Shown here piece after piece: positions 46,774-64,000 of a stretch of DNA of 64,000 nucleotides; position 1 is the first letter of the stretch; each line of letters starts with the position of its first letter. Made by a program: the position numbers and the translations under genes. The DNA is from Escherichia coli. GTDB taxonomy: Bacteria > Pseudomonadota > Gammaproteobacteria > Enterobacterales > Enterobacteriaceae. The notes below the pieces were generated by a model, which ran no database searches, was not told where the DNA came from, and saw nothing but the letters and a program-made list of their open reading frames with translations. The DNA lies in the NCBI RefSeq assembly GCF_003018115.1, contig NZ_CP027457.1; one strand, written 5' to 3'.

Positions 46774-46782
46774 GGAACGACG

Positions 46783-47923: not shown

Positions 47924-49486
47924 ATGAAACCAGAAGATTTCCGCGCCAGTACCCAACGTCCGTTCACCGGGGAAGAGTATCTGAAAAGCCTGCAGGATGG
48001 TCGCGAGATCTATATCTACGGCGAGAGAGTGAAAGACGTCACCACTCATCCGGCATTTCGTAATGCGGCAGCGTCTGTTGCCCAACTGTACGACGCGCTA
48101 CACAAACCGGAGATGCAGGACTCTCTGTGTTGGAACACCGACACCGGCAGCGGCGGCTATACCCATAAATTCTTCCGCGTGGCGAAAAGTGCCGACGACC
48201 TGCGCCAGCAACGCGATGCCATCGCTGAGTGGTCACGCCTGAGCTATGGCTGGATGGGCCGTACCCCAGACTACAAAGCTGCTTTCGGTTGCGCACTGGG
48301 CGCGAATCCGGGCTTTTACGGTCAGTTCGAGCAGAACGCCCGTAACTGGTATACCCGTATTCAGGAAACTGGCCTCTACTTTAACCACGCGATTGTTAAC
48401 CCACCGATCGATCGTCATTTGCCGACCGATAAAGTGAAAGACGTTTACATCAAGCTGGAAAAAGAGACTGACGCCGGGATTATCGTCAGCGGTGCGAAAG
48501 TGGTTGCCACCAACTCGGCGCTGACTCACTACAACATGATTGGTTTCGGCTCGGCACAAGTGATGGGCGAAAACCCGGACTTCGCACTGATGTTCGTTGC
48601 GCCAATGGATGCCGATGGCGTGAAATTAATCTCCCGCGCCTCTTATGAGATGGTCGCGGGTGCTACCGGCTCGCCGTACGACTACCCGCTCTCCAGCCGC
48701 TTCGATGAGAACGATGCGATCCTGGTGATGGATAACGTACTGATCCCTTGGGAAAACGTGCTGATCTACCGCGATTTCGATCGCTGCCGTCGCTGGACGA
48801 TGGAAGGCGGTTTTGCCCGTATGTATCCGCTGCAAGCCTGTGTGCGCCTGGCAGTGAAACTCGACTTCATCACGGCACTGCTGAAAAAATCACTCGAATG
48901 TACCGGCACCCTGGAGTTCCGTGGTGTGCAGGCCGATCTCGGTGAAGTGGTGGCGTGGCGCAACACCTTCTGGGCATTGAGTGACTCGATGTGTTCAGAA
49001 GCGACGCCGTGGGTCAACGGGGCTTATTTACCGGATCATGCTGCACTGCAAACCTATCGCGTACTGGCACCAATGGCCTACGCGAAGATCAAAAACATTA
49101 TCGAACGCAACGTTACCAGTGGCCTGATCTATCTCCCTTCCAGTGCCCGTGACCTGAACAATCCGCAGATCGACCAGTATCTGGCGAAGTATGTGCGCGG
49201 TTCGAACGGTATGGATCACGTCCAGCGCATCAAGATCCTCAAACTGATGTGGGATGCCATTGGCAGCGAATTTGGTGGTCGTCACGAGCTGTATGAAATC
49301 AACTACTCCGGTAGCCAGGATGAGATTCGCCTGCAATGTCTGCGCCAGGCACAAAGCTCCGGCAATATGGACAAGATGATGGCGATGGTTGATCGCTGCC
49401 TGTCGGAATACGACCAGAACGGCTGGACTGTGCCGCACCTGCACAACAACGACGATATCAACATGCTGGATAAGCTGCTGAAATAA
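47924..49486 (+). CDS. hpaB: 4-hydroxyphenylacetate 3-monooxygenase, oxygenase component HpaB (520 aa)
   Basis: ORF track 520 aa. Confidence 0.94.
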   Translation: MKPEDFRASTQRPFTGEEYLKSLQDGREIYIYGERVKDVTTHPAFRNAAASVAQLYDALHKPEMQDSLCWNTDTGSGGYTHKFFRVAKSADDLRQQRDAIAEWSRLSYGWMGRTPDYKAAFGCALGANPGFYGQFEQNARNWYTRIQETGLYFNHAIVNPPIDRHLPTDKVKDVYIKLEKETDAGIIVSGAKVVATNSALTHYNMIGFGSAQVMGENPDFALMFVAPMDADGVKLISRASYEMVAGATGSPYDYPLSSRFDENDAILVMDNVLIPWENVLIYRDFDRCRRWTMEGGFARMYPLQACVRLAVKLDFITALLKKSLECTGTLEFRGVQADLGEVVAWRNTFWALSDSMCSEATPWVNGAYLPDHAALQTYRVLAPMAYAKIKNIIERNVTSGLIYLPSSARDLNNPQIDQYLAKYVRGSNGMDHVQRIKILKLMWDAIGSEFGGRHELYEINYSGSQDEIRLQCLRQAQSSGNMDKMMAMVDRCLSEYDQNGWTVPHLHNNDDINMLDKLLK

Positions 49487-49503
49487 CGCAGCAGGAGGTT
49501 AAG

Positions 49504-50016
49504 ATGCAATTAGATGAACAACGCCTGCGCTTTCGTGACGCGATGGCCAGCCTGTCGGCAGCGGTAAATATTATCACCACCGAGGGCGACGCCGGACAAT
49601 GCGGGATTACGGCAACGGCCGTCTGCTCGGTCACGGATACCCCTCCGTCGCTGATGGTGTGCATTAACGCCAACAGTGCGATGAACCCGGTTTTTCAGGG
49701 CAACGGCAAGTTGTGCGTCAACGTCCTCAACCATGAGCAGGAACTGATGGCGCGCCACTTCGCGGGCATGACGGGCATGGCGATGGAAGAGCGTTTTAGC
49801 CTCTCGTGCTGGCAAAAAGGTCCGCTGGCGCAGCCGGTGCTAAAAGGTTCGCTGGCCAGTCTTGAAGGTGAGATCCGCGATGTGCAGGCGATTGGCACAC
49901 ATCTGGTGTATCTGGTGGAGATTAAAAACATCATCCTCAGTGCAGAAGGTCACGGACTTATTTACTTTAAACGCCGTTTCCATCCGGTGATGCTGGAAAT
50001 GGAAGCTGCGATTTAA
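49504..50016 (+). CDS. hpaC: 4-hydroxyphenylacetate 3-monooxygenase, flavin reductase component HpaC (170 aa)
   Basis: ORF track 170 aa; 18 bp after hpaB. Confidence 0.93.
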   Translation: MQLDEQRLRFRDAMASLSAAVNIITTEGDAGQCGITATAVCSVTDTPPSLMVCINANSAMNPVFQGNGKLCVNVLNHEQELMARHFAGMTGMAMEERFSLSCWQKGPLAQPVLKGSLASLEGEIRDVQAIGTHLVYLVEIKNIILSAEGHGLIYFKRRFHPVMLEMEAAI

Positions 50017-50129: not shown

Positions 50130-50408
50130 CATCCCTAAAATAACCACTCAGTTATTTACCTTACTTTACGCGCGCGTATCTCTGGCAACATCACTGCAGG
50201 ATAGCGGTCAATTTACCTCCTCAAACGCAACGCAAACCTAGAACGGCTTCGGCCTATGATTAACAAATTACTCTATGGATTTTGGTTTGCAGGAAGGCAG
50301 CAAGTGAGTGAATCCCCGGGAGCTTACAACAGTAAGTGACAGGGGTGAACGAACGCAGCTGCCGCACCTGTAAGCCAAAAGACGACGAGTAAAATGCCAG
50401 GTTTTACT

Positions 50409-52559
50409 ATGGATACGAAAAAACTATTCAAGCACATACCCTGGGTGATTCTCGGAATCATCGGTGCATTCTGCCTCGCGGTAGTTGCATTACGTCGGGG
50501 GGAGCACGTCAGCGCCCTGTGGATCGTGGTCGCCTCTGTGTCGGTGTATCTGGTGGCGTATCGCTACTACAGTCTGTACATCGCCCAGAAGGTGATGAAA
50601 CTCGACCCCACGCGCGCGACGCCTGCGGTTATTAACAACGACGGTCTGAACTACGTTCCGACCAACCGTTACGTGTTGTTTGGTCACCACTTCGCCGCTA
50701 TCGCCGGTGCTGGTCCGCTGGTTGGTCCGGTTCTCGCCGCGCAGATGGGCTACCTGCCTGGCACGCTGTGGCTGCTGGCGGGGGTAGTGCTGGCCGGTGC
50801 GGTACAGGACTTTATGGTGCTGTTTATCTCCTCTCGCCGTAACGGCGCATCTCTCGGTGAGATGATCAAAGAAGAGATGGGACCAGTACCGGGGACTATC
50901 GCGCTGTTTGGCTGTTTCTTAATCATGATCATCATCCTCGCCGTTCTGGCGCTGATTGTGGTTAAAGCCCTGGCCGAAAGTCCGTGGGGTGTCTTCACCG
51001 TTTGCTCAACCGTACCAATTGCGCTGTTTATGGGTATCTATATGCGCTTTATTCGTCCGGGGCGTGTGGGTGAAGTCTCTGTCATTGGTATCGTGCTGCT
51101 GGTTGCCTCTATCTACTTCGGTGGCGTGATTGCTCACGATCCGTACTGGGGTCCGGCACTGACCTTTAAAGACACCACCATTACCTTCGCGCTGATTGGC
51201 TATGCGTTTGTTTCCGCACTGCTGCCGGTGTGGCTGATCCTCGCACCACGCGACTATCTGGCAACCTTCCTGAAAATCGGCGTTATCGTCGGCCTGGCGC
51301 TGGGTATCGTGGTGCTGAACCCGGAACTGAAAATGCCTGCGATGACCCAGTACATTGACGGTACTGGCCCGCTGTGGAAAGGCGCTCTGTTCCCGTTCCT
51401 GTTCATCACCATCGCCTGTGGTGCGGTATCTGGCTTCCACGCACTGATCTCTTCCGGTACGACGCCGAAACTGCTGGCTAATGAAACCGACGCGCGTTTC
51501 ATCGGTTATGGCGCAATGCTGATGGAGTCCTTCGTGGCGATTATGGCGCTGGTTGCTGCGTCCATCATCGAACCAGGTCTTTACTTCGCGATGAATACCC
51601 CGCCTGCTGGCCTTGGCATCACCATGCCTAACCTGCATGAAATGGGTGGCGAGAACGCGCCGATCATCATGGCGCAGTTGAAAGACGTTACCGCACACGC
51701 GGCGGCGACCGTCAGCTCCTGGGGCTTCGTGATTTCGCCAGAGCAGATCCTGCAAACCGCGAAAGACATTGGTGAGCCTTCTGTCCTGAACCGTGCAGGT
51801 GGTGCGCCGACGCTGGCGGTAGGTATCGCTCACGTGTTCCACAAAGTGCTGCCGATGGCTGACATGGGCTTCTGGTATCACTTCGGTATTCTGTTCGAAG
51901 CACTGTTCATCCTGACCGCGCTGGATGCGGGTACCCGTTCTGGCCGCTTTATGTTGCAAGACCTGCTGGGTAACTTCATCCCGTTCCTGAAAAAAACCGA
52001 CTCTCTGGTTGCCGGTATCATCGGTACTGCGGGCTGTGTGGGTCTGTGGGGCTACCTGCTGTATCAGGGCGTGGTCGATCCGCTGGGCGGCGTTAAGAGC
52101 CTGTGGCCGTTGTTCGGTATCTCCAACCAGATGCTGGCAGCCGTGGCGCTGGTACTGGGTACCGTTGTGCTGATTAAGATGAAGCGCACCCAATACATCT
52201 GGGTAACTGTTGTTCCGGCTGTATGGCTGCTTATCTGCACCACCTGGGCACTGGGTCTGAAACTGTTCAGCACCAACCCGCAGATGGAAGGCTTCTTCTA
52301 CATGGCAAGCCAGTACAAAGAGAAGATTGCTAACGGTACTGACCTGACGGCGCAGCAGATTGCCAACATGAACCACATCGTTGTGAACAACTACACCAAC
52401 GCAGGTCTGAGTATTCTGTTCCTGATTGTGGTGTACAGCATCATCTTCTACGGTTTCAAAACCTGGCTGAAGGTGCGTAACAGCGACAAACGTACTGACA
52501 AAGAAACACCGTACGTTCCAATCCCGGAAGGCGGCGTGAAGATCTCTTCGCACCACTAA
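50409..52559 (+). CDS. btsT: CstA-family pyruvate/H+ symporter BtsT (YjiY, 716 aa)
   Basis: ORF track; start at internal ATG giving MDTKKLFKHIPWVILGIIGAF; multi-TM CstA-like. Confidence 0.93.
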   Translation: MDTKKLFKHIPWVILGIIGAFCLAVVALRRGEHVSALWIVVASVSVYLVAYRYYSLYIAQKVMKLDPTRATPAVINNDGLNYVPTNRYVLFGHHFAAIAGAGPLVGPVLAAQMGYLPGTLWLLAGVVLAGAVQDFMVLFISSRRNGASLGEMIKEEMGPVPGTIALFGCFLIMIIILAVLALIVVKALAESPWGVFTVCSTVPIALFMGIYMRFIRPGRVGEVSVIGIVLLVASIYFGGVIAHDPYWGPALTFKDTTITFALIGYAFVSALLPVWLILAPRDYLATFLKIGVIVGLALGIVVLNPELKMPAMTQYIDGTGPLWKGALFPFLFITIACGAVSGFHALISSGTTPKLLANETDARFIGYGAMLMESFVAIMALVAASIIEPGLYFAMNTPPAGLGITMPNLHEMGGENAPIIMAQLKDVTAHAAATVSSWGFVISPEQILQTAKDIGEPSVLNRAGGAPTLAVGIAHVFHKVLPMADMGFWYHFGILFEALFILTALDAGTRSGRFMLQDLLGNFIPFLKKTDSLVAGIIGTAGCVGLWGYLLYQGVVDPLGGVKSLWPLFGISNQMLAAVALVLGTVVLIKMKRTQYIWVTVVPAVWLLICTTWALGLKLFSTNPQMEGFFYMASQYKEKIANGTDLTAQQIANMNHIVVNNYTNAGLSILFLIVVYSIIFYGFKTWLKVRNSDKRTDKETPYVPIPEGGVKISSHH

Positions 52560-52567
52560 CCGTGTTT

Positions 52568-52595
52568 AGCCCCGCTTCGGCGGGGCTTTGTTCTT
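52568..52595 (+). terminator. rho-independent terminator after btsT
   Basis: AGCCCCGC-TTCG-GCGGGGCT hairpin followed by TTTGTTCTT. Confidence 0.7.
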
Positions 52596-52608
52596 ATCAG
52601 AGTGAACT

Positions 52609-52812
52609 ATGTTTGGTAACTTAGGACAGGCAAAAAAATATCTCGGCCAGGCGGCGAAGATGTTGATTGGCATTCCAGACTACGACAACTACGTCGAGCA
52701 TATGAAGACCAACCATCCCGACAAGCCGTACATGAGCTATGAAGAATTCTTCCGCGAACGCCAGAACGCGCGCTACGGCGGCGATGGTAAAGGCGGTATG
52801 CGCTGTTGTTAA
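52609..52812 (+). CDS. yjiX: small protein YjiX (DUF466, 67 aa)
   Basis: ORF track 67 aa; conserved partner downstream of the CstA-family transporter. Confidence 0.85.
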
Positions 52813-52822
52813 TGGAGAGAGC

Positions 52823-53779
52823 ATGAACCCGATTGCAGTTACCCTACTCACCGGTTTTTTAGGCGCGGGCAAAACCACCCTGCTGCGCCATATTCTTAAC
52901 GAACAACACGGCTACAAGATTGCCGTGATTGAAAACGAATTCGGCGAAGTCTCCGTTGATGATCAATTGATTGGTGATCGCGCCACGCAGATCAAAACGC
53001 TGACCAACGGCTGCATCTGCTGTTCGCGCTCCAACGAGCTGGAGGACGCGCTACTCGACCTGCTGGACAATCTCGACAAGGGCAATATTCAGTTCGATCG
53101 TCTGGTCATTGAATGCACCGGCATGGCCGATCCCGGCCCGATTATTCAGACCTTTTTCTCCCATGAGATTTTATGCCAGCGTTACCTGCTGGACGGGGTG
53201 ATTGCGCTGGTGGATGCGGTACATGCCGATGAGCAGATGAACCAGTTCACCATCGCCCAGTCCCAGGTGGGCTACGCTGACCGTATTCTGCTGACTAAAA
53301 CCGACGTCGCAGGCGAAGCAGAGAAACTGCGTGAACGCCTGGCGCGCATCAACGCCCGTGCACCGGTCTACACCGTCACCCACGGGGACATCGACCTGGG
53401 CCTGCTGTTCAACACCAACGGTTTTATGCTGGAAGAAAACGTCGTCAGCACCAAACCGCGTTTTCACTTTATCGCGGATAAACAAAACGATATTTCGTCG
53501 ATTGTGGTGGAACTGGATTACCCGGTAGATATCAGCGAAGTTTCCCGCGTGATGGAAAACCTGCTGCTGGAATCGGCGGATAAACTGCTGCGTTACAAAG
53601 GGATGCTATGGATTGACGGCGAACCTAACCGTCTGCTGTTCCAGGGCGTCCAGCGCCTCTACAGCGCCGACTGGGACCGCCCGTGGGGCGATGAAAAACC
53701 GCATAGCACGATGGTGTTTATCGGGATTCAGTTGCCGGAGGAAGAGATTCGGGCAGCGTTTGCGGGGTTGAGGAAGTAA
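52823..53779 (+). CDS. yjiA: CobW/COG0523-family metal-binding GTPase YjiA (318 aa)
   Basis: ORF track; start at internal ATG giving MNPIAVTLLTGFLGAGKTTLL (Walker A); CxCC motif GCICCS. Confidence 0.92.
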   Translation: MNPIAVTLLTGFLGAGKTTLLRHILNEQHGYKIAVIENEFGEVSVDDQLIGDRATQIKTLTNGCICCSRSNELEDALLDLLDNLDKGNIQFDRLVIECTGMADPGPIIQTFFSHEILCQRYLLDGVIALVDAVHADEQMNQFTIAQSQVGYADRILLTKTDVAGEAEKLRERLARINARAPVYTVTHGDIDLGLLFNTNGFMLEENVVSTKPRFHFIADKQNDISSIVVELDYPVDISEVSRVMENLLLESADKLLRYKGMLWIDGEPNRLLFQGVQRLYSADWDRPWGDEKPHSTMVFIGIQLPEEEIRAAFAGLRK

Positions 53780-53787
53780 GGGGTTAT

Positions 53788-53817
53788 GGGCCGGATAAGG
53801 CGCAGCCGCATCCGGCC
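53788..53817. repeat. REP element between yjiA and mrr
   Basis: GGGCCGGATAAGGCGCAGCCGCATCCGGCC palindrome. Confidence 0.75.
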
Positions 53818-53824
53818 TGATATT

Positions 53825-54739
53825 TCACTCAAAATAGTCCATATCCAGTTTCGGCACCTTCAACAAACGTGAAGAAACCCCTACTTCGTTTTCGATCATT
53901 AAGTGCACCAGGCGTTCCCCATCAACCAACACCATACCCTCGACGGATTGAGCAAAGTCACGCGCCTGAGACGTAAATCCAGAAGTGGTAATAAACACCC
54001 CACGTTTCGCCTTTTGCCCAGCCAGTGCGCCGTAAAATGCCTGTAATTCTGGCCTGCCTACAGTGTTCTGCCAACGTTTTGCCTGAACATAAACTTTCTC
54101 CAGGCCAAGTTTATCAAGCGATATCACACCATCGATGCCACCATCTCCAGTACCGCCAACACGCTGCAAATCATCACGGTGGCCGCCATACCCCAGGCGA
54201 TGCAAAACATCCAGAACAATGACTTCAAAGCGCGAAGGAGAAACCTGCAATAAGTTTTCCAGAACCTCATCAGCCACCGCATCACTAAGCTCTTTTAGCG
54301 CCTGATCTAACCGATCGTCCGGGCTGCTCTTTGCAAGTTCTTCATGATCGGGAGAGTCGGCTTTCGGATCTAAATCGACGGCATCCGGCCGTGACTTAAG
54401 TTTGACATTCACAAAATCGAAGGCCAGATGGTTCGTCTCCTGCTCCGTCATTGGCTGGGGATGAGACGCAACCCAGTCAAAACCCGCAGGAGTCAGGCAC
54501 CATTTGCCACGCGACAAACTTTGCGACAACCCGGCACGTTTTAAACGGTCATGCGCCCAGCCTGCACGATTTTTATAAACAAGTTGTCCGCTGGTAATGA
54601 CTTTCGCTCGCTGGCTGTCATCCAGTCCTAATGCATCCGCGGCAGCCTCATGAACATCACGCGCGGCTGCACCTTCCGGTTTTGTCGCCAGATAACGCAG
54701 AACAGGTTCAATAAATTTGTCATAGGTAGGAACCGTCAT
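53825..54739 (-). CDS. mrr: Mrr, Type IV methylated-adenine/cytosine-dependent restriction endonuclease (304 aa)
   Basis: ORF track 304 aa, MTVPTYDKFIEPVLRYLATKPEGAAARDV. Confidence 0.93.
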   Translation of the reverse strand: MTVPTYDKFIEPVLRYLATKPEGAAARDVHEAAADALGLDDSQRAKVITSGQLVYKNRAGWAHDRLKRAGLSQSLSRGKWCLTPAGFDWVASHPQPMTEQETNHLAFDFVNVKLKSRPDAVDLDPKADSPDHEELAKSSPDDRLDQALKELSDAVADEVLENLLQVSPSRFEVIVLDVLHRLGYGGHRDDLQRVGGTGDGGIDGVISLDKLGLEKVYVQAKRWQNTVGRPELQAFYGALAGQKAKRGVFITTSGFTSQARDFAQSVEGMVLVDGERLVHLMIENEVGVSSRLLKVPKLDMDYFE

Positions 54740-54926
54740 AGTACATCCTTGCAGAATCAGGTAGATGTTTTTCGGCTACTATAACACTACCAAAATAGAC
54801 GAACACGTTAGAAATGAGTCAGTTGCTGTGACCGTGGTCATTGCCCGGAAAGGTACAGAAAGCTAAGATAAGGCGTTATGGGCCTTAAATATTTGGACAG
54901 GCCCACACAGCAATGGATTAATAACA

Positions 54927-57900
54927 ATGATGAATAAATCCAATTTTGAATTCCTGAAGGGCGTCAACGACTTTACCTATGCCATCGCCTGTGCGGCGGA
55001 AAATAACTACCCGGATGATCCCAACACGACGCTGATTAAAATGCGTATGTTTGGCGAAGCCACAGCGAAACATCTTGGTCTGTTACTCAACATCCCCCCT
55101 TGTGAGAATCAACACGATCTCCTGCGCGAACTCGGCAAAATCGCCTTCGTTGATGACAACATTCTCTCTGTATTCCACAAATTACGCCGCATTGGTAACC
55201 AGGCGGTGCACGAATATCATAACGATCTCGACGATGCCCAGATGTGCCTGCGACTCGGGTTTCGCCTGGCTGTCTGGTACTACCGTCTGGTCACTAAAGA
55301 TTATGACTTCCCGGTGCCGGTGTTTGTGTTGCCGGAACGTGGTGAAAACCTCTATCACCAGGAAGTGCTGACGCTAAAACAACAGCTTGAACAGCAGGTG
55401 CGAGAAAAAGCGCAGAGTCAGGCAGAAGTCGAAGCACAACAGCAGAAGCTGGTTGCCCTGAACGGCTATATCGCCATTCTGGAAGGCAAGCAGCAGGAAA
55501 CCGAAGCGCAAACCCAGGCTCGCCTTGCTGCACTGGAAGCACAGCTCGCCGAGAAGAACGCGGAACTAGCCAAGCAGACCGAACAGGAACGTAAGGCTTA
55601 CCACAAAGAAATTACCGATCAGGCCATCAAGCGTACACTCAATCTTAGCGAAGAAGAGAGCCGCTTCCTGATTGACGCGCAACTGCGTAAAGCAGGCTGG
55701 CAGGCCGATAGCAAAACCCTGCGCTTCTCCAAAGGCGCGCGCCCGGAACCCGGCGTCAATAAAGCCATTGCCGAATGGCCGACCGGGAAAGATGAAACGG
55801 GTAATCAGGGCTTTGCGGATTATGTGCTGTTTGTCGGTCTCAAACCCATCGCGGTGGTAGAAGCGAAACGTAAAAATATCGACGTTCCCGGCAAGCTCAA
55901 TGAGTCGTATCGCTACAGTAAATGTTTCGATAATGGCTTCCTGCGGGAAACCTTGCTTGAGCACTACTCACCGGATGAAGTGCATGAAGCGGTGCCGGAG
56001 TATGAAACCAGTTGGCAGGACACCAGCGGCCAACAACGGTTTAAAATCCCCTTCTGCTACTCGACCAACGGGCGCGAATACCGCGCAGCGATGAAGACTA
56101 AAAGTGGCATCTGGTATCGCGACGTGCGTGATACCCGCAATATGTCGAAAGCCTTACCCGAGTGGCATCGCCCGGAAGAGTTGCTGGAAATGCTCGGCAG
56201 CGAACCGCAAAAACAGAATCAGTGGTTTGCCGATAATCCCGGCATGAGCGAGCTGGGCCTGCGTTATTATCAGGAAGATGCCGTCCGCGCGGTTGAAAAG
56301 GCAATCGTCAAGGGTCAACAAGAGATCCTGCTGGCGATGGCGACCGGTACCGGTAAAACCCGCACCGCAATTGCCATGATGTTCCGCCTGATCCAGTCCC
56401 AGCGTTTTAAACGCATTCTCTTCCTTGTGGATCGCCGTTCTCTTGGCGAGCAGGCGCTGGGGGCGTTTGAAGATACGCGTATTAACGGCGACACTTTCAA
56501 CAGCATTTTCGACATTAAAGGGCTGACGGATAAATTCCCCGAAGACAGCACCAAAATTCACGTTGCCACCGTACAGTCGCTGGTGAAACGCACCCTGCAA
56601 TCGGATGAACCGATGCCGGTAGCCCGTTACGACTGTATCGTCGTCGATGAAGCGCATCGCGGCTATATTCTCGATAAAGAGCAGACCGAAGGCGAACTGC
56701 AGTTCCGCAGCCAACTGGATTACGTTTCTGCCTACCGTCGTATTCTCGATCACTTCGATGCGGTAAAAATTGCTCTCACCGCCACCCCGGCGCTGCATAC
56801 GGTGCAGATTTTCGGCGAGCCGGTTTACCGTTACACCTACCGTACCGCGGTTATCGACGGTTTTCTGATCGACCAGGATCCGCCGATTCAGATCACCACC
56901 CGCAACGCACAGGAAGGGGTTTATCTCTCCAAAGGCGAGCAGGTTGAGCGCATCAGCCCGCAGGGGGAAGTGATCAACGACACCCTGGAAGACGATCAGG
57001 ATTTTGAGGTCGCCGACTTTAACCGTGGCCTGGTGATCCCGGCGTTTAACCGCGCCGTCTGTAACGAACTCACCAACTACCTTGACCCGACCGGGTTACA
57101 AAAAACGCTGGTCTTCTGCGTCACCAATGCCCATGCCGATATGGTGGTGGAAGAGTTGCGTACCGCGTTCAAGAAAAAGTATCCGCAACTGGAGCACGAC
57201 GCGATCATCAAGATCACCGGTGATGCCGATAAAGACGCGCGCAAAGTGCAGACCATGATCACCCGCTTCAATAAAGAGCGGCTGCCCAATATTGTCGTAA
57301 CCGTCGACCTGCTGACGACCGGCGTCGATATTCCGTCGATCTGTAATATCGTGTTCCTGCGTAAAGTACGCAGCCGTATTCTGTACGAGCAGATGAAAGG
57401 CCGCGCCACGCGCTTGTGCCCGGACGTGAATAAAACCAGCTTTAAGATTTTCGACTGCGTCGATATCTACAGCACGCTGGAGAGCGTCGATACCATGCGT
57501 CCGGTGGTGGTGCGCCCGAAGGTGGAACTGCAAACGCTGGTCAACGAAATTACCGATTCGGAAACCTATAAAATCACCGAAGCGGATGGCCGTAGCTTTG
57601 CCGAGCACAGCCATGAACAACTGGTGGCGAAGCTCCAGCGCATCATCGGCCTGGCCACGTTTAACCGTGACCGCAGCGAAACGATAGATAAACAGGTGCG
57701 TCGTCTGGATGAGCTATGCCAGGACGCGGCGGGCGTGAACTTTAACGGCTTCGCCTCGCGCCTGCGGGAAAAAGGGCCGCACTGGAGCGCCGAAGTCTTT
57801 AACAAACTGCCTGGCTTTATCGCCCGTCTGGAAAAGCTGAAAACCGACATCAACAACCTGAATGATGCGCCGATCTTCCTCGATATCGACGATGAAGTGG

Positions 57901-58439
57901 TGAGTGTAAAATCGCTGTACGGTGATTACGACACGCCGCAGGATTTCCTCGAAGCCTTTGACTCGCTGGTGCAACGTTCCCCGAACGCGCAACCAGCATT
58001 GCAGGCGGTGATTAATCGCCCGCGCGATCTCACCCGTAAAGGGCTGGTCGAGCTACAGGAGTGGTTTGACCGCCAGCACTTTGAGGAATCTTCCCTGCGC
58101 AAAGCGTGGAAAGAGACGCGCAATGAAGATATCGCCGCCCGGCTGATTGGACATATTCGCCGCGCTGCGGTGGGCGATGCGCTGAAACCGTTTGAGGAAC
58201 GTGTCGATCACGCGCTGACGCGCATTAAGGGCGAAAACGACTGGAGCAGCGAGCAATTAAGCTGGCTCGATCGTTTAGCGCAGGCGCTGAAAGAGAAAGT
58301 GGTGCTCGACGACGATGTCTTCAAAACCGGCAACTTCCACCGTCGCGGCGGGAAGGCGATGCTGCAAAGAACCTTTGACGATAATCTCGACAGCCTGCTC
58401 GATAAATTCAGCGATTATATCTGGGACGAGCTGGCCTGA
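54927..58439 (+). CDS. hsdR: Type I restriction enzyme R subunit HsdR (1170 aa)
   Basis: ORF track 1170 aa; helicase motif I ATGTGKT and DEAH box VVDEAHRG. Confidence 0.96.
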   Translation: MMNKSNFEFLKGVNDFTYAIACAAENNYPDDPNTTLIKMRMFGEATAKHLGLLLNIPPCENQHDLLRELGKIAFVDDNILSVFHKLRRIGNQAVHEYHNDLDDAQMCLRLGFRLAVWYYRLVTKDYDFPVPVFVLPERGENLYHQEVLTLKQQLEQQVREKAQSQAEVEAQQQKLVALNGYIAILEGKQQETEAQTQARLAALEAQLAEKNAELAKQTEQERKAYHKEITDQAIKRTLNLSEEESRFLIDAQLRKAGWQADSKTLRFSKGARPEPGVNKAIAEWPTGKDETGNQGFADYVLFVGLKPIAVVEAKRKNIDVPGKLNESYRYSKCFDNGFLRETLLEHYSPDEVHEAVPEYETSWQDTSGQQRFKIPFCYSTNGREYRAAMKTKSGIWYRDVRDTRNMSKALPEWHRPEELLEMLGSEPQKQNQWFADNPGMSELGLRYYQEDAVRAVEKAIVKGQQEILLAMATGTGKTRTAIAMMFRLIQSQRFKRILFLVDRRSLGEQALGAFEDTRINGDTFNSIFDIKGLTDKFPEDSTKIHVATVQSLVKRTLQSDEPMPVARYDCIVVDEAHRGYILDKEQTEGELQFRSQLDYVSAYRRILDHFDAVKIALTATPALHTVQIFGEPVYRYTYRTAVIDGFLIDQDPPIQITTRNAQEGVYLSKGEQVERISPQGEVINDTLEDDQDFEVADFNRGLVIPAFNRAVCNELTNYLDPTGLQKTLVFCVTNAHADMVVEELRTAFKKKYPQLEHDAIIKITGDADKDARKVQTMITRFNKERLPNIVVTVDLLTTGVDIPSICNIVFLRKVRSRILYEQMKGRATRLCPDVNKTSFKIFDCVDIYSTLESVDTMRPVVVRPKVELQTLVNEITDSETYKITEADGRSFAEHSHEQLVAKLQRIIGLATFNRDRSETIDKQVRRLDELCQDAAGVNFNGFASRLREKGPHWSAEVFNKLPGFIARLEKLKTDINNLNDAPIFLDIDDEVVSVKSLYGDYDTPQDFLEAFDSLVQRSPNAQPALQAVINRPRDLTRKGLVELQEWFDRQHFEESSLRKAWKETRNEDIAARLIGHIRRAAVGDALKPFEERVDHALTRIKGENDWSSEQLSWLDRLAQALKEKVVLDDDVFKTGNFHRRGGKAMLQRTFDDNLDSLLDKFSDYIWDELA

Positions 58440-58515
58440 CACGGTATCATTCCCGGCAATTTCTTCTTCTGCGGCCCAATAAATTTGGGCCGCTGCTTAA
58501 TTTACGGAACACCCA

Positions 58516-60105
58516 ATGAACAATAACGATCTGGTCGCGAAGCTGTGGAAGCTGTGCGACAACCTGCGCGATGGCGGCGTTTCCTATCAAAACTACGTCA
58601 ATGAACTCGCCTCGCTGCTGTTTTTGAAAATGTGTAAAGAGACCGGGCAGGAAGCGGAATACCTGCCGGAAGGCTACCGCTGGGATGACCTGAAATCCCG
58701 CATCGGCCAGGATCAATTGCAGTTCTACCGTAACCTGCTGGTACATCTGGGCGCCGACAATCAAAAGCTGGTGCAGGCGGTGTTCCAGAACGTCAACACC
58801 ACCATTACCCAGCCAAAACAGTTGACCGAACTGGTCACAAATATGGATTCGCTGGACTGGTATAACGGTGCGCACGGTAAGTCGCGCGATGACTTCGGCG
58901 ATATGTACGAAGGGCTGTTGCAGAAGAACGCCAACGAAACCAAGTCTGGCGCGGGCCAGTACTTCACCCCGCGTCCGCTGATTAAAACCATTATTCATCT
59001 GCTGAAACCGCAGCCGCGTGAAGTGGTGCAGGACCCGGCAGCAGGTACGGCGGGCTTTTTGATTGAAGCCGACCGCTACGTTAAGTCGCAGACCAATGAT
59101 CTGGACGACCTTGATGGCGATACGCAGGATTTCCAGATCCACCGCGCGTTTATCGGCCTCGAACTGGTGCCCGGCACCCGTCGTCTGGCGCTGATGAACT
59201 GCCTGCTGCACGATATTGAAGGCAACCTCGACCACGGCGGCGCAATCCGTCTGGGCAACACTCTGGGTAGCGACGGCGAAAACCTGCCGAAGGCGCATAT
59301 TGTCGCCACTAACCCGCCGTTTGGCAGCGCCGCAGGCACCAACATTACCCGCACCTTTGTTCACCCGACCAGCAATAAACAGTTGTGCTTTATGCAGCAT
59401 ATTATCGAAACGCTGCACCCCGGCGGTCGTGCGGCGGTGGTGGTGCCGGATAACGTGCTGTTTGAAGGCGGCAAAGGCACCGACATTCGTCGTGACCTGA
59501 TGGATAAGTGTCATCTGCACACTATTCTGCGTCTGCCGACCGGTATTTTTTACGCGCAGGGCGTGAAAACCAACGTGCTGTTCTTTACCAAAGGCACGGT
59601 GGCGAACCCGAATCAGGATAAGAACTGCACCGATGATGTGTGGGTGTACGACCTGCGTACCAATATGCCGAGCTTCGGCAAGCGCACGCCGTTTACTGAC
59701 GAACATCTGCAGCCGTTTGAGCGGGTGTATGGCGAAGATCCCCACGGCTTAAGCCCGCGCACTGAAGGCGACTGGGAATTCGACGCAGAAAAAAGTGAAA
59801 TTGCCGACAGCGAAGAGAACAAAAACACCGACCAGCATCTGGCTACCAGCCGCTGGCGCAAGTTCAGCCGCGAGTGGATCCGCACCGCGAAATCCGATTC
59901 GCTGGATATCTCCTGGCTGAAAGATAAAGACAGCATTGACGCCGACAACCTGCCGGAGCCGGATGTATTAGCGGCAGAAGCGATGGGCGAGCTGGTACAG
60001 GCGCTGGGCGAACTGGATGCGTTGATGCGTGAACTGGGGGCGAGCGATGAGGCGGATGCACAGCGTCAGTTGCTGGAAGAAGCGTTTGGTGGGGTGAAGG
60101 AATGA
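58516..60105 (+). CDS. hsdM: Type I restriction-modification M subunit HsdM, N6-adenine methyltransferase (529 aa)
   Basis: ORF track 529 aa; motif IV NPPFG and SAM-binding region. Confidence 0.96.
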   Translation: MNNNDLVAKLWKLCDNLRDGGVSYQNYVNELASLLFLKMCKETGQEAEYLPEGYRWDDLKSRIGQDQLQFYRNLLVHLGADNQKLVQAVFQNVNTTITQPKQLTELVTNMDSLDWYNGAHGKSRDDFGDMYEGLLQKNANETKSGAGQYFTPRPLIKTIIHLLKPQPREVVQDPAAGTAGFLIEADRYVKSQTNDLDDLDGDTQDFQIHRAFIGLELVPGTRRLALMNCLLHDIEGNLDHGGAIRLGNTLGSDGENLPKAHIVATNPPFGSAAGTNITRTFVHPTSNKQLCFMQHIIETLHPGGRAAVVVPDNVLFEGGKGTDIRRDLMDKCHLHTILRLPTGIFYAQGVKTNVLFFTKGTVANPNQDKNCTDDVWVYDLRTNMPSFGKRTPFTDEHLQPFERVYGEDPHGLSPRTEGDWEFDAEKSEIADSEENKNTDQHLATSRWRKFSREWIRTAKSDSLDISWLKDKDSIDADNLPEPDVLAAEAMGELVQALGELDALMRELGASDEADAQRQLLEEAFGGVKE

Positions 60106-61430
60106 GTGCGGGGAAATTGCCAGAGGGGTGGGTTGAAACTCAATTAGAAAATATCGTTGATATTTTAGACTCAATGCGTGTCCCGGTTAATAATTCTGAG
60201 AGACAATCACGCATTGCAGGAAAAAAAGAAAATGAACTTTATCCCTATTTTGGTGCTACCGGTGAAGTCGGTAAAATTGATGATTATATTTTTGATGAAG
60301 AACTTGTTGCATTAGGTGAAGATGGTGTTCCTTTTTTTGATGGGCACAAAAATAAGGCTTATATGCTGTATGGTAAAACGTGGGTGAATAATCATGCTCA
60401 TGTAATAAGAGCTATCTCTGGACTAAGCCATAACAAGTATTTATGCCATTATCTTAACCAATTCGACTATCATGATTATGTAAACGGCGGGACCAGGCTT
60501 AAACTTACACAAGCGAATATGAGAAAACTACCTGTTAGTTTAGCGCCTCTCGCCGAACAAAAAATCATCGCAGAAAAACTCGATACGCTGCTGGCGCAGG
60601 TAGAGAGCACCAAAGCACGTCTTGAGCAAATCCCACAAATCCTGAAACGTTTTCGTCAGGCGGTGTTGGCTGCTGTTGTTAATGGAAAATTATCAAAGAA
60701 CACGAAGCAATGGGAAATATACTTATTAAAAAATCTTTGTACTAGCATTTCAGATGGCGATCATCAGGCTCCTCCAAAATCAGAAACAGGAGTGCCTTTC
60801 CTCGTAATCTCCGATGTTAATAAAGGGGTGATTGATTTTGATAATGTAACCAGATGGGTGCCTGAATCTTACTACCAATCGCTAAAAGAAATTAGAAAAC
60901 CATGCCAATATGATATTTTATATACAGTTACAGGTTCTTATGGAATACCTGTAATTGTTAACGACAATAAACCATTTTGTTTCCAGCGACATATTGCCAT
61001 CATCAAGCCAAACAGAAATTTAATTGATCATAGATTCTTAGCTTTCTATTTAGAATCACCACAAATTCTCAAACATGCAAGTGATGTTGCTACTGGGACC
61101 GCACAAAAAACAGTATCGCTGTCGAGTCTCCGAAATTTTGAGATCTCTGTTCCCCCTTTAAAAGAACAACACGAAATCGTTCGTCGCGTCGAGCAACTCT
61201 TCGCCTACGCCGACACTATTGAAAAACAGGTCAACAACGCCCTGGCCCGCGTCAACAACCTGACGCAATCCATTCTGGCAAAAGCGTTCCGTGGTGAACT
61301 CACCGCCCAGTGGCGGGCCGAAAACCCGGAATTGATCAGCGGAGAAAACAGCGCCGCCGCGTTGCTGGAGAAAATCAAAGCTGAACGCGCAGCCAGCGGG
61401 GGTAAAAAAGCCTCGCGTAAAAAATCCTGA
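60102..61430 (+). CDS. hsdS: Type I restriction-modification specificity subunit HsdS (442 aa), Type IA framework with non-EcoKI target-recognition domains
   Basis: ORF track; ATGA overlap with hsdM; conserved N-terminus MSAGKLPEGWV, central LAPLAEQKIIAEKLDTLLAQVESTKARLEQIPQILKRFRQAVL and C-terminal PPLKEQHEIVRRVEQLFAYADTIEKQVNNALARV blocks flank two AT-rich variable segments. Confidence 0.9.
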   Translation: MSAGKLPEGWVETQLENIVDILDSMRVPVNNSERQSRIAGKKENELYPYFGATGEVGKIDDYIFDEELVALGEDGVPFFDGHKNKAYMLYGKTWVNNHAHVIRAISGLSHNKYLCHYLNQFDYHDYVNGGTRLKLTQANMRKLPVSLAPLAEQKIIAEKLDTLLAQVESTKARLEQIPQILKRFRQAVLAAVVNGKLSKNTKQWEIYLLKNLCTSISDGDHQAPPKSETGVPFLVISDVNKGVIDFDNVTRWVPESYYQSLKEIRKPCQYDILYTVTGSYGIPVIVNDNKPFCFQRHIAIIKPNRNLIDHRFLAFYLESPQILKHASDVATGTAQKTVSLSSLRNFEISVPPLKEQHEIVRRVEQLFAYADTIEKQVNNALARVNNLTQSILAKAFRGELTAQWRAENPELISGENSAAALLEKIKAERAASGGKKASRKKS

Positions 61431-61562
61431 ACATTATTTTCTGGCGCACCTTTCCGGTGCGCTTTTAATTATTTCACGCCAATCATAATTCACGCAAATA
61501 TATTTAAATCACTCCAGAAATTGCCCATTTTATTCTATTTTTAGCTGGACTTTCCCTGTATT

Positions 61563-61582
61563 TACTGATGATATATCCAGGT
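61563..61582 (+). promoter_or_regulatory. LexA (SOS) box upstream of symE
   Basis: TACTGATGATATATCCAGGT: CTG-N10-CAG with AT-rich centre, about 75 bp upstream of the symE ATG. Confidence 0.65.
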
Positions 61583-61589
61583 ATTTAGC

Positions 61590-61670
61590 GCGGTGCGGAT
61601 GTGCGCCAACACACCCGCACCGCTCATCACAATCACTATTTATGGAGAATAGTAATCATGACTGACACGC
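61590..61670 (-). ncRNA. symR: SymR antisense sRNA overlapping the symE 5' UTR and start codon (boundaries approximate)
   Basis: position opposite the symE translation initiation region; 9-bp-stem hairpin GCGGTGCGG / CCGCACCGC at 61590-61623; minus-strand TAGAAT-like -10 at 61671-61676. Ends are inferred, not read directly. Confidence 0.3.
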
Positions 61671-61999
61671 ATTCTATTGCACAACCGTTCGAAGCAGAAG
61701 TCTCCCCGGCAAATAACCGTCAATTAACCGTGAGTTATGCGAGCCGCTACCCGGATTACAGCCGTATTCCCGCCATCACCCTGAAAGGTCAGTGGCTGGA
61801 AGCCGCCGGTTTTGCCACCGGCACGGCGGTAGATGTCAAAGTGATGGAAGACTGTATTGTCCTCACCGCCCAACCCGCCGCCGCCGAAGAGAGCGAACTG
61901 ATGCAGTCACTGCGCCAGGTGTGCAAACTGTCGGCGCGTAAACAAAAGCAGGTGCAGGAGTTCATTGGGATGATTGCGGGTAAACAGAAAGTCGCCTGA
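61658..61999 (+). CDS. symE: SymE, SOS-induced toxin-like protein (113 aa)
   Basis: ORF track; start at internal ATG giving [38 protein letters not shown] 10 bp upstream. Confidence 0.9.
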
Positions 62000-62007
62000 T
62001 ACATTGA

Positions 62008-62031
62008 CCCGGTAGCGCCAGTGCTACCGGG
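62008..62031. terminator. hairpin between convergent symE and the downstream nuclease gene, probable bidirectional terminator
   Basis: CCCGGTAGC-GCCAGT-GCTACCGGG followed by TATTATT. Confidence 0.5.
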
Positions 62032-62045
62032 TATTATTCGCCGCG

Positions 62046-64000
62046 TTATACCAACGCGCTCTCCATCTGTTTTTCAAATGCCTGACGAATTAATCCCATA
62101 ATATAAGGAAGTTGTGCGAGGTCGCTGAAACCAATTTCCACATCGCCATTGCCCCATCGCCCAACATTTGTCACATCTTTGGCAATACCTTTCGGATCGA
62201 CCAGTTCATGAAACTGCATATTAAGCGACAATCGCAGTCGGCTTTTTTGCGGCACAACATCAACAAAATTCGTTTCAGCTTTAAACGCAATATAGAGCTT
62301 CAATACTTCCTGCGTGATCCCTGCGTCCAGGCGCATAACTTCATCGCTAAGATGATCGAATAACACCCGGCTATGCGAACCATCAGCAAGAAAAGGATAA
62401 TCACTCAGGCTGTAACTGGTTTTGTTTTCCGGCTGCCCCCGATAAACAGCTAAAACCTCTTCAGGAAGAGAAGGCGCTTGCCAGACCTGAACCGCGAGAT
62501 CGGCCAGACGATCGGCTCGGGCGTGAATGGCGGCTTCATCCCATTTTTCGCACTGTCCAAGACCGATATTCAAATAAAGCGGGCTATGCTTAAAGCCGTC
62601 TTCAATATCGCGTTTTTCCGCGAAAGGTCTGTCACTGTAGCGGGAGTTATAGCGCGTTAAAGTGAGATTCCCCAACGTATGTAACAGTTCTTTATGCACA
62701 CGCTGCCAGTCGCTTCCCAGCTCTTCGCGCCATTTAGCCGACAAATTTTCGTTCTGCGGCATAATATGTTCAATCGTAAACTCTTCCACGCGCTCTCTGC
62801 GTTTATCGTTTTCCAGTCGTCGTAACCAGTAGCTGCGACTACGGAAGTTATAGAGATCGCGAACTTTTAATTCCCGTTTAAATTCATCATCGTTGGGGAA
62901 ACGACGATATGAAGGTAGATTCAAAAAATGTACCTGAATACTTTCCAGATAATTTTCTTTATTAATAACTTTATAAAAAGTGGCAAATGTCTTGTTCAAA
63001 GAATTTGTCGGAATTGCACATACTGCACGGCGGAAAACATAAGATTCAATTAAACGAATTATGCTCAGGAAATCTTCGTGAGACAAATCGTCATTTTTAT
63101 AGTCATGATAAAGCGCCAGTAAGAAAGGATACGCCACATCAACCTTTAACTCGCGCAAATCCTGAAAAGCCGTAGCAAGCGATTTGTCACTTTCTTTTCC
63201 CAATGCCATTGCACAGTAATACTCCGCGTAGATGTGAATATCTTCAACCAGCCGATCTACGCCTTTTTCAGCAACACTCTGGCTGCGGGCATGGAGTTTA
63301 AATGCCTCATAGACTTCATCTGTCCGAGGGATCTCCCCCGTTTTTACCGTCAGATAATGACGCATAAAACTGTCAAAATATTCGCTGTAACCTTGCTGAC
63401 CAAAAGCGACTTCCATTGGACGCCAGTGATCTTCATACAACCGGGTTTGATGCTCTGGTTCGAGGCCCATCAGAATAAAATTGCGCACCAGATCGGCCTG
63501 ACTTAACGCCTTACCGGTGGAGTTCATACTTTCAAAAATCAGTTGCGGATTATCCTGACCACGATTAAGCGCCACATCGACAATTAATAACTTTGCTAAC
63601 CCACGACATAAGGGGATCAAGTCATCACCGAGTTTGGCAATTTGCTCATCAAAGAAAGTAAAGTTTTCCATTATTCGATGGGAATAGTTTTCTGGCATTG
63701 GTCTTTGTTTTATTAACGCCAGTAAACTGTCTTTATCAGTCTCGGTCAGCAGTAATTTAAAACCTTTCTCGCCGGACTCATAAGGATTGAGCAAATAATA
63801 ATTACGCAATTTCATTGCCGAAAAGCCATCAAAAACTTCGTCTTCGCCAAGATGGCGCGATAAAGCCTCAATCAGCAACATTGCGGTCGTCAGCCGCTGC
63901 TGACCATCAATGACCAGCAACGGAGAAATACCAGAAACCTGATACAATCCCTGCTCTATATAAACAACCGAACCGATAAAATGCGCTGATATATCGTCAC
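62046..64000 (-). CDS. DUF262/DUF1524 (GmrSD-family) nuclease, candidate Type IV modification-dependent restriction enzyme; N-terminus lies beyond the window end
   Basis: ORF track 633 aa from an internal TTG, but the frame stays open to position 64000 (...DDISAHFIGSVVYIEQGLYQVSGISPLLVIDGQQRLTT); DUF262 hallmarks DGQQRLTT and IFESMNSTGKALSQADLVRNF; C-terminal DUF1524 His-Me-finger region EHIMPQNENLS...LHTLGNLTLTRYN; visibly AT-rich. Confidence 0.8.
   Translation of the reverse strand, partial: DDISAHFIGSVVYIEQGLYQVSGISPLLVIDGQQRLTTAMLLIEALSRHLGEDEVFDGFSAMKLRNYYLLNPYESGEKGFKLLLTETDKDSLLALIKQRPMPENYSHRIMENFTFFDEQIAKLGDDLIPLCRGLAKLLIVDVALNRGQDNPQLIFESMNSTGKALSQADLVRNFILMGLEPEHQTRLYEDHWRPMEVAFGQQGYSEYFDSFMRHYLTVKTGEIPRTDEVYEAFKLHARSQSVAEKGVDRLVEDIHIYAEYYCAMALGKESDKSLATAFQDLRELKVDVAYPFLLALYHDYKNDDLSHEDFLSIIRLIESYVFRRAVCAIPTNSLNKTFATFYKVINKENYLESIQVHFLNLPSYRRFPNDDEFKRELKVRDLYNFRSRSYWLRRLENDKRRERVEEFTIEHIMPQNENLSAKWREELGSDWQRVHKELLHTLGNLTLTRYNSRYSDRPFAEKRDIEDGFKHSPLYLNIGLGQCEKWDEAAIHARADRLADLAVQVWQAPSLPEEVLAVYRGQPENKTSYSLSDYPFLADGSHSRVLFDHLSDEVMRLDAGITQEVLKLYIAFKAETNFVDVVPQKSRLRLSLNMQFHELVDPKGIAKDVTNVGRWGNGDVEIGFSDLAQLPYIMGLIRQAFEKQMESALV

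Follow-up and report, generated by a model that had tools for sequence, protein, structure and literature searches.

The window analysed here, a stretch of 64,000 nucleotides of Escherichia coli DNA, ends inside the immigration control region (ICR), which occupies positions 53825-64000 and carries, in this order, mrr, hsdR, hsdM, hsdS, symR/symE and a nuclease gene. The segment matches ETEC O169:H41-type chromosomes (100.0% match; 3 SNPs in 10,176 bp), in which the corresponding genes are annotated as mrr, hsdR, hsdM, S subunit, symE and GmrSD. We compared it with the ICRs of K-12, B, O157:H7, TUM14697, GF31, TC24 and WP2-S18-ESBL-07. The order of the genes agrees with the preliminary description, according to which the K-12 gene order is kept across this block. 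It is very likely that the locus represents a known configuration of the ICR (defence hotspot 36), in which Mrr and symE/symR accompany hsdRMS genes of Type IA, and a GmrSD-family nuclease made as a single chain takes the position held by mcrBC in K-12 and B.

The mrr gene (53825-54739, minus strand) encodes a Type IV Mrr restriction endonuclease of 304 aa (Pfam Mrr_N and Mrr_cat; PADLOC mREase_IV, E = 1e-173; RefSeq annotation in a near-identical genome), 302 residues of which (99.3%) are identical to those of the K-12 protein; an R152S change is private to the Mrr of the window. The Type IA restriction subunit gene hsdR (54927-58439, plus strand; 1170 aa) was identified from its product, which shares 1157 residues (98.9%) with the HsdR of K-12 EcoKI. 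When compared with strain B, hsdR is a patchwork, with 100% identity up to about position 55939 and about 96% beyond. The 76-bp spacer between hsdR and hsdM (58440-58515) lacks the ~125-bp ERIC/IRU-like element found in the 200-bp spacer of K-12, and spacers of about 200 bp are also present in B, TC24, WP2 and GF31. The methyltransferase subunit gene hsdM (58516-60105, plus strand; 529 aa), which shares 4 nt with hsdS, encodes a protein that has the NPPF motif and is identical to EcoKI HsdM at 508 positions (96.0%).

Alignment by blastn confirmed the earlier claim that mrr and hsdRM are conserved relative to K-12: the nucleotide identity is 97.7% over 50394-58443, which includes mrr and hsdR, and 94.1% over 58454-60134, which covers hsdM. 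The latter gene is itself locally patchy (84% over 58739-58938 and 88-93% over 59739-60138).

The specificity subunit gene hsdS (60102-61430, plus strand; 442 aa; two stretches of Pfam Methylase_S) combines a conserved frame with two target recognition domains (TRDs) that are foreign to K-12. The variable N-terminal domain, TRD1 (60135-60545, plus strand), yielded no K-12 match with blastn, and the same was true of the variable C-terminal domain, TRD2 (60692-61158, plus strand). Between them lies the central conserved region of hsdS (60546-60691, plus strand), 91% identical to K-12 at the nucleotide level, and a three-way protein alignment revealed that its segment PLAEQKIIAEKLDTLLAQV...RFRQAVL is common to the HsdS proteins of EcoKI and EcoBI; this region probably serves as a recombination substrate between the TRDs. 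The C-terminal conserved region (61159-61430, plus strand), whose protein product is near-identical to that of EcoKI, opens a further block of K-12 similarity (61159-61995, 94.4%).

This block ends with symE (61658-61999, plus strand; 113 aa; Pfam SymE_toxin), the last framework gene ahead of a variable slot. SymE is identical to its K-12 counterpart at 106 of 113 residues, and the similarity to K-12 stops at the symE stop codon. The antisense RNA antitoxin symR is encoded at 61587-61663 on the minus strand (Rfam RF01809, full length 1-77, scoring 95.3 bits where the gathering score is 61). symE and the nuclease gene, which converge, are separated by a hairpin with a 10-bp stem (62007-62032; RNA fold of -20.2 kcal/mol, z = -3.6 relative to shuffles), which is probably a bidirectional terminator belonging to the cassette; K-12 has another hairpin at the matching position.

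The slot itself, delimited by alignment to K-12, extends from the symE stop codon to the yjiS stop codon (61996-64000 in the window, continuing to 64231). Throughout 61996-64231 blastn found no K-12 match, and similarity to K-12 picks up again at yjiS. The slot is 2,236 bp long and holds a single intact gene of 697 codons, which is cut by the end of the window, whereas the K-12 slot (7,583 bp) contains mcrB-mcrC-yjiV'-yjiT, a 3.4-fold difference in length. The occupants belong to unrelated families (GmrSD_N, GmrSD_C and DUF5655 here, McrB and McrC in K-12), and the GmrSD-family gene is the sole long ORF of the slot. Neither it nor the rest of the cassette matched that of K-12 by blastn, and no homology between the cassette and mcrBC was detected by alignment.

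The nuclease gene (62046-64139, minus strand) is represented in the window by codons 47-697 (62046-64000); its first 46 codons (the 5' 139 nt, 64001-64139) lie outside the window and were taken from the near-identical sequence NZ_CP024269.1. In a near-identical locus (L001, 17222-19315) the ORF is intact for all 697 codons. The predicted protein contains an N-terminal DUF262/GmrSD_N domain (PF03235, E = 4e-34, residues 9-222), in which D78-G79-Q80-Q81-R82 is invariant among 60 homologues, and a DUF1524/GmrSD_C His-Me finger nuclease domain (PF07510, E = 8e-27, residues 415-547) with a (D/E/H)HxxP motif. Within the latter, P461 and N491 are invariant and E457, H458 and N498 are conserved in at least 90% of the same 60 homologues. 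These domains are followed by a C-terminal DUF5655, which is YdhG/YjbR-like and has fold similarity to the DNA-binding domain of T4 MotA. The AF2 model of the whole protein has a pLDDT of 89.7. Proteins 70-77% identical over about 700 residues occur in Halomonas, Oceanimonas and Kiritimatiella.

The RefSeq annotation (PGAP) of a near-identical genome divides this gene into a CDS of 387 aa and a pseudogene labelled 'DUF262 ... missing C-terminus', which raises the possibility that the gene is a decayed remnant and that in Type IV restriction the strain differs from K-12 only by the loss of McrBC. The O157:H7 allele is truly interrupted, a C5 run having lost 1 bp, and a promoter scan upstream of the gene gave nothing above shuffled expectation; in a combined promoter and terminator scan around it, counts did not exceed those of shuffled controls. 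The ORF analysed here, however, is uninterrupted, with all conserved catalytic residues present, and is colinear with homologues of 699-701 aa (76% aa identity to one of 699 aa). Furthermore, 697-aa proteins form a 90%-identity cluster of 3,852 members, the representative of which is 98% identical to our ORF, and the in-frame C5 run, searched as an exact 81-mer, occurs in 879 genomes and the frameshifted version in 298. The split annotation is explained by the transfer of O157 protein models. We therefore reject the pseudogene reading for the present sequence, and decay of the gene with mere loss of McrBC appears quite improbable.

The edges of the three replaced blocks, namely TRD1, TRD2 and the slot, are sharp: identity to K-12 falls from 94-98% to an undetectable level within a few bases, and the breakpoints of the slot coincide with the stop codons of symE and yjiS. 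Thus, the near-identity to K-12 through hsdS and mcrBC that would have contradicted the preliminary description was not seen when K-12 and B were aligned to locate breakpoints, and its statement that the HsdS variable domains and the Type IV slot differ from K-12 held for all three blocks.

The same description had pointed out that the variable segments are AT-rich relative to their flanks. This is correct, since the G+C content is 0.358 in TRD1 and 0.364 in TRD2 (36%), compared with 0.562 in hsdM and 0.544 in the C-terminal conserved region of hsdS (flanks of 54-56%), and 0.440 (44%) in the nuclease gene, compared with an overall 0.523 for the window. When the 64 kb were scanned in 411-nt windows, only about 1% of these reached the AT content of the TRDs. 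The property is nevertheless not special to this strain: the TRDs of K-12 (0.35) and its mcrC and mcrB (0.37 and 0.40) are equally AT-rich.

Comparison with other genomes revealed that the modules assort separately. An hsdS allele 97.2% identical to the present one adjoins mcrBC in strain GF31, and O157:H7 carries the GmrSD gene behind a Type IB hsd system. TRD1 occurs without TRD2 in strain WP2-S18-ESBL-07, which has another TRD2, while TRD2 occurs without TRD1 in strain TC24. In WP2-S18-ESBL-07 a tract of 449 bp spanning TRD1 (60123-60571) is 100% identical to our sequence and its flanks differ by 2-8%; such identity inside diverged flanks indicates that the tract is young. Among 5,426 complete E. 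coli genomes, TRD1 was detected in 9, TRD2 in 8 (three of them with a different TRD1) and the pair in 5. Database proteins gave a similar picture, since a 100% identical TRD1 was found with a TRD2 of 21% identity, and other proteins joined a TRD1 of about 20% identity to a TRD2 of 96-97%. The TRD1-TRD2 pair is also present, at 82-87% identity, in Salmonella, Klebsiella and Citrobacter.

In the same set of complete genomes the GmrSD gene was present in 1,402 (95-98% identical) and mcrBC in 582, so that the slot is more often filled by the GmrSD gene than by mcrBC, and a description centred on K-12 has to be qualified. With the exception of one genome it has a single location per genome, and it is chromosomal in all but one case.

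The positions of the breakpoints at stop codons, the unrelated families in the slot, the independent assortment of the modules and the identical TRD1 tract show that segments were replaced and did not diverge in place, and support the earlier interpretation of cassette exchange at a defence hotspot. We propose that homologous recombination within a conserved framework lets non-homologous modules enter and leave. On the mrr side of the slot this framework would extend from yjiA through mrr, hsdR and hsdM to symE and include the three conserved hsdS regions; on the far side it would be formed by yjiS-yjiR. TRD1 and TRD2 would be exchanged as two separate modules, and a third would be the Type IV cassette that lies between the stop codons of symE and yjiS.

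An alternative is that the cassette is a mobile element moved by its own integrase or transposase rather than by homologous exchange in the flanks. Other ICR variants bear copies of IS1, and a frameshifted gene of the Rpn family of recombination-promoting nucleases lies 2 kb past the slot; its K-12 counterpart, yjiP (now rpnD), is reported to raise RecA-independent transfer (PMC4498929). The slot junctions, however, sit at the stop codons of conserved genes. Neither an integrase or transposase nor a tRNA lies at them, they are not flanked by repeats, direct or inverted, and the ICR, unlike hotspot 37, is described in a review as being without mobilising activity at its anchors (PMC12707154). 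The repeat families found were limited to short matches in two copies, of a size expected by chance, and for this reason a transposon or integrase origin was rejected; we consider it very unlikely. Rapid in-place divergence of resident hsdS and mcrBC under diversifying selection, without foreign modules, is scarcely credible, because, although defence specificity determinants are generally under such selection and the part of hsdM beside hsdS (59739-60138) is also raised in divergence, it would have to produce the abrupt block edges, slot occupants of different families and lengths, an unchanged TRD1 between diverged flanks, and TRDs that recur in other genera with unrelated partners.

Exchange of modules by homologous recombination around a framework, as proposed here, is not a new phenomenon. 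The variation of ICR cassettes and the presence of a GmrSD homologue in the place of McrBC have already been published (PMC12707154, section 60, Fig. 10 and Table 3; PMC4437046, Fig. 8), and for the ICR the reshuffling of defence specificity in this way has been an established principle since 2004 (Sibley & Raleigh 2004, cited in PMC12707154) and was reviewed in 2025. The window therefore contains a variant of a well-studied region, and the practical use of the present analysis lies in strain handling, not in discovery.

For such handling, the sequence predicts a restriction phenotype that differs from that of K-12. EcoKI recognizes AAC(N6)GTGC, and since both TRDs are unrelated to those of EcoKI the target is expected to be another one. 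HsdM2S would methylate, and HsdR2M2S would restrict, a bipartite target other than that of EcoKI, with HsdR and HsdM subunits that may be interchangeable with those of K-12. DNA prepared in K-12 should then be cut by the Type I enzyme of this strain, and DNA from the strain should lack K-12 modification. A search of 5.8 billion proteins and of the PDB yielded no named or solved HsdS with these TRDs (generic names only), and a literature search found no methylome paper on identical strains. As regards Type IV restriction, the McrBC-type restriction of 5mC or 5hmC DNA should be absent. The nuclease, with its DUF262 ParB-like NTPase, DUF1524 His-Me nuclease and YdhG/YjbR-like domains, most likely cleaves DNA bearing a phage-type modification in an NTP-dependent manner, so some modification of this kind is probably restricted instead.

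Comparison with known systems places the hsd genes in Type IA, of which EcoKI is the prototype. HsdR and HsdM are closely similar to the EcoKI subunits, the hsdR-hsdM-hsdS genes lie between mrr and symE in the K-12 order and orientation, and HsdS has two unrelated TRDs set between N-terminal, central and C-terminal regions matching EcoKI and EcoBI. EcoKI HsdS is the best match in a PDB sequence search, through the conserved regions only; TRD1 and TRD2 give no meaningful alignment with it, and the protein is shorter (442 as opposed to 464 aa). The locus as a whole resembles the ICR of K-12 and B in its position between yjiA and yjiS/yjiR, in the order and orientation of mrr, hsdR, hsdM, hsdS and symR/symE, and in the identity of the framework (94-98%). 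It differs from it in both TRDs and in the 7.6-kb mcrB-mcrC-yjiV'-yjiT segment of K-12, which is replaced by the 2.2-kb GmrSD-family cassette.

The solved structures closest to the nuclease are those of DndI and SspE, phosphorothioate-sensing DUF262-DUF1524 proteins with the same domain order (PMC11662687; Foldseek E = 1e-16 and 3e-14, probability 1.00), and the closest PDB sequence match is 9jfl (E = 1e-12). However, the identity to DndI and SspE is only 16-18%, both lack DUF5655, the match ends near residue 555 (DndI has 596 aa), and no dnd or ssp modification genes (dndBCDE, sspABCD) were found in the 28 kb around the nuclease gene. Like Eco94GmrSD/CT596 GmrSD and BrxU, Type IV enzymes for glc-5hmC, 5hmC or 5mC DNA, the nuclease has a DGQQR NTPase motif, a (D/E)HxxP His-Me motif and a single-chain two-domain core (PMC4437046; PMC12707154). 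It differs from these enzymes in the extra C-terminal DUF5655 and in its chromosomal location in the ICR rather than in a prophage, plasmid or BREX island. The relationship to Eco94GmrSD is remote (24% reported for an ICR homologue; PMC4437046), and BrxU was absent among the PDB sequence and fold matches.

The O157 proteins WP_001304006/7 and WP_000648214 are listed in CLS_001 in PMC12373910 Supplementary Data 6, and through these proteins the nuclease can be assigned to CLS_001, whose entries there include its O157 and TUM14697 orthologues; a representative of this cluster was synthesised and assayed (PMC12373910). The closeness of DndI and SspE among solved relatives, the extra YdhG/YjbR-like domain and the 70-77% identity in distant bacteria leave some room for the idea, which we regard as doubtful, that the CLS_001 nuclease is not a classical cytosine-modification GmrSD and responds to a different signal, for example a phage protein or a modified backbone or purine, via its C-terminal domain. 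If so, the enzyme that most often serves as the 'Type IV' member of the E. coli ICR would be one of unknown specificity. The nearest known counterparts of the present gene are the ICR GmrSD homologues APECO1_2080, UTI89_C5048 and ECP_4674 (He et al. 2015), which occupy the same slot beside symE/hsdS and have the same DUF262 and DUF1524 domains. APECO1_2080, reported as 733 aa compared with 697 aa here, was matched by architecture and slot; nothing essential separates the nuclease from these homologues, and it is a member of their group.

Blastn comparison of the immigration control region (ICR, defence hotspot 36 of E. coli; 53825-64000) with that of K-12 MG1655 revealed a mosaic of conserved and unrelated blocks. 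The gene map retains the K-12 order: mrr (53825-54739, minus strand), hsdR (54927-58439), hsdM (58516-60105), hsdS (60102-61430; 442 aa) and symE (61658-61999), all four on the plus strand, symR (61587-61663, minus strand; Rfam RF01809, 95.3 bits), and a GmrSD-family nuclease gene (minus strand) whose 3' end lies at 62046 and which extends past the end of the window. Identity to K-12 is 97.7% from btsT to hsdR (50394-58443), 94.1% over hsdM and the first 33 nt of hsdS (58454-60134), 91% in the central region of hsdS (60546-60691), 94.4% over the 3' end of hsdS, symR and symE (61159-61995) and 94.8% from yjiS onward (64232 onward). No K-12 identity was found in the N- and C-terminal target recognition domains of HsdS (TRD1, 60135-60545; TRD2, 60692-61158) or in the variable slot between the symE and yjiS stop codons (61996-64231). 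The encoded proteins follow this pattern (Mrr 99.3%, HsdR 98.9%, HsdM 96.0% and SymE 93.8% identical), and HsdS is 46% identical overall, with the identity confined to its conserved regions. The edges of the slot are sharp: similarity extends as far as the stop codon of symE, which itself differs (TGA versus TAA), and returns four bases ahead of the yjiS stop codon. The slot comprises 2,236 bp, versus 7,583 bp in K-12 (mcrB, mcrC, the yjiV pseudogene and yjiT). The preliminary description, in which mrr and hsdRM were conserved within the K-12 gene order and the HsdS variable domains and the enzyme after symE were different, was therefore accurate, and the region is not colinear with K-12 through hsdS and mcrBC.

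The hsdR-hsdM spacer (58440-58515) is 76 bp long, compared with approx. 200 bp in K-12, B, GF31, TC24 and WP2. The K-12 spacer contains a repeat of approx. 125 bp (aligned in K-12 only), presumably an ERIC/IRU-like element, which is absent here; a related copy is present upstream of btsT (50287-50359). The hpa (4-hydroxyphenylacetate) operon adjoins btsT (approx. 44825-50000; 1-5192 of the corresponding locus, L001, in the near-identical genome NZ_CP024269.1), as in E. coli B, at the place occupied by tsr in K-12.

Four lines of evidence support the conclusion that the variable segments were replaced rather than diverged in place. (i) The slot occupants are unrelated: GmrSD_N (PF03235), GmrSD_C (PF07510) and DUF5655 (PF18899) domains are encoded here and McrB/McrC in K-12. 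(ii) The modules assort independently. The same hsdS allele (97.2%) is followed in GF31 by mcrB and an mcrC broken by IS1; TRD1 is paired with another TRD2 in WP2-S18-ESBL-07, and TRD2 with another TRD1 in TC24, both followed by mcrBC. O157:H7 carries a Type IB (EcoAI-family) hsd with the same GmrSD gene after symE, and, in O157:H7 strain 9234, another DUF262 and HNH-endonuclease gene pair, also split, at the mrr position (3787-5438 of its locus, L005). TUM14697 contains a 76%-identical, paralogue-like copy of the nuclease gene in an ICR laid out differently. (iii) A 449-bp tract spanning TRD1 (60123-60571) is identical in WP2-S18-ESBL-07, where hsdM and the remainder of hsdS differ by 2-8%, and the window differs from GF31 by one SNP in TRD1 but at approx. 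4% of TRD2 sites; the two domains therefore have separate histories even within one hsdS allele. (iv) In a large protein database, one protein combines a TRD1 of 100% identity with a TRD2 of 21%, at least five combine a TRD2 of 96-97% with a TRD1 of 13-21%, and proteins from Salmonella, Klebsiella and Citrobacter carry the same TRD pair at 82-87%.

The proposed cassette exchange is thus supported, and the observation behind it confirmed. A search of the slot junctions for an integrase, a transposase or a meaningful repeat detected none. The best-supported route is homologous recombination, which would swap modules through the conserved flanks and the conserved regions of hsdS; this is the established account of Type I specificity shuffling and of the ICR (PMC12707154, section 60). 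A frameshifted gene of the Rpn family of recombination-promoting nucleases (rpnD/yjiP homologue) lies just past yjiR, outside the window (L001 21407-22341). According to PMC4498929, the K-12 homologue increases RecA-independent transfer, and the gene may be relevant to exchange at the ICR.

The AT-richness noted previously is real: GC is 0.358 in TRD1, 0.364 in TRD2 and 0.440 in the nuclease gene, versus 0.562 in hsdM, 0.544 in the C-terminal conserved region of hsdS and 0.523 in the whole window, and AT-richness at the TRD level occurs in approx. 1% of 411-nt windows across the 64 kb. However, the K-12 modules are equally AT-rich (TRDs 0.35; mcrC/mcrB 0.37/0.40); low GC is therefore a trait of TRD and slot modules in every allele and no sign of recent arrival in this strain. 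Further AT-rich patches (GC at most 0.40 in 411-nt windows or at most 0.445 in 2-kb windows, the window length being counted in each span) were present at 8201-8761, 25301-28300 (including 26601-27561), 34101-34611 and 39101-39761.

Of 5,426 complete E. coli genomes, 1,402 carry the GmrSD-family cassette at a query coverage of 80% or more, and 582 carry mcrBC; laboratory strains derived from K-12 or B account for many of the latter. The GmrSD gene is thus the commoner slot occupant, and the earlier wording of a replaced mcrBC slot is K-12-centric. The Type I specificity is rare: TRD1 occurs in nine of these genomes, TRD2 in eight and the pair in five.

Over its full length the region matched three ETEC chromosomes at 100.0% (F8111-1SC3, O169:H41 2014EL-1345-2 and LR882990). 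Aligned directly with F8111-1SC3, it shows three SNPs (54286, 57453 and 58694), all non-synonymous (Mrr R152S, HsdR N843D and HsdM R60K, F8111-1SC3 residue first). K-12 and four further strains likewise have HsdR D843 and HsdM K60; of seven sequences compared, only the window has Mrr S152.

Since the part of the nuclease gene within the window is identical in NZ_CP024269.1, the missing 139 nt were taken from that genome and are probably the same here. The ORF there comprises 697 uninterrupted codons (L001 17222-19315, corresponding to 62046-64139), with yjiS and then yjiR beyond it. RefSeq/PGAP annotates this intact ORF as a 387-aa CDS and a pseudogene ("DUF262, missing C-terminus"), leaving its middle without any annotated feature in intact genomes. 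In the O157:H7 allele, a genuine 1-bp deletion shortens a C5 run (position 63335) and generates two CDSs (WP_001304007 and WP_001304006); by exact 81-mer, 879 genomes have the in-frame C5 version and 298 the frameshifted C4 version. The split annotation appears to result from frameshifted O157:H7 protein models carried over to intact genomes. The O157:H7 ICR has two GmrSD-like loci, one on either side of the Type IB hsd, both split.

Among 60 homologues (33-82% identity) of the 697-aa nuclease, DGQQR (78-82) is invariant, as are two of the His-Me nuclease residues (P461 and N491); the other three (E457, H458 and N498) are retained in at least 90%. The family comprises 2,760 clusters (50% identity) at E <= 1e-30, and the three-domain form of approx. 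700 aa has counterparts with 70-77% identity in Halomonas, Oceanimonas, Salinivibrio, Competibacteraceae and Kiritimatiella glycovorans. Such identity between very distant bacteria, striking for a defence gene, implies wide horizontal spread under strong constraint.

The phenomenon itself is already known, as regards ICR variation, GmrSD in place of McrBC and Type I TRD shuffling. Cassette-like ICR variation was reported by Sibley and Raleigh (2004), as described in PMC12707154, and GmrSD in McrBC's place has been published (PMC4437046, PMC12707154). He et al. (2015; PMC4437046) drew GmrSD homologues in the ICR of APEC O1, UTI89, 536, CFT073 and others, with an endoribonuclease gene, hsdSMR and mrr as neighbours, the ICR homologue being 24% identical to Eco94GmrSD. 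The O157 and TUM14697 orthologues belong to the nuclease cluster CLS_001 of PMC12373910, where it is the first and largest among the twenty commonest Enterobacteria clusters analysed, and where one representative per group was synthesised and challenged with T-even phages. The PADLOC models "Orf5" (E = 2e-223) and "HEC-06" match residues 10-553 of the 697-aa nuclease. BrxU was not recovered in PDB sequence or structure comparison, DndI and SspE being the sole sequence matches. The AlphaFold2 model is confident (pLDDT 89.7, pTM 0.77), and the solved structures nearest to it are likewise those of the phosphorothioate-sensing DndI (9jfl, E = 1e-16) and SspE.
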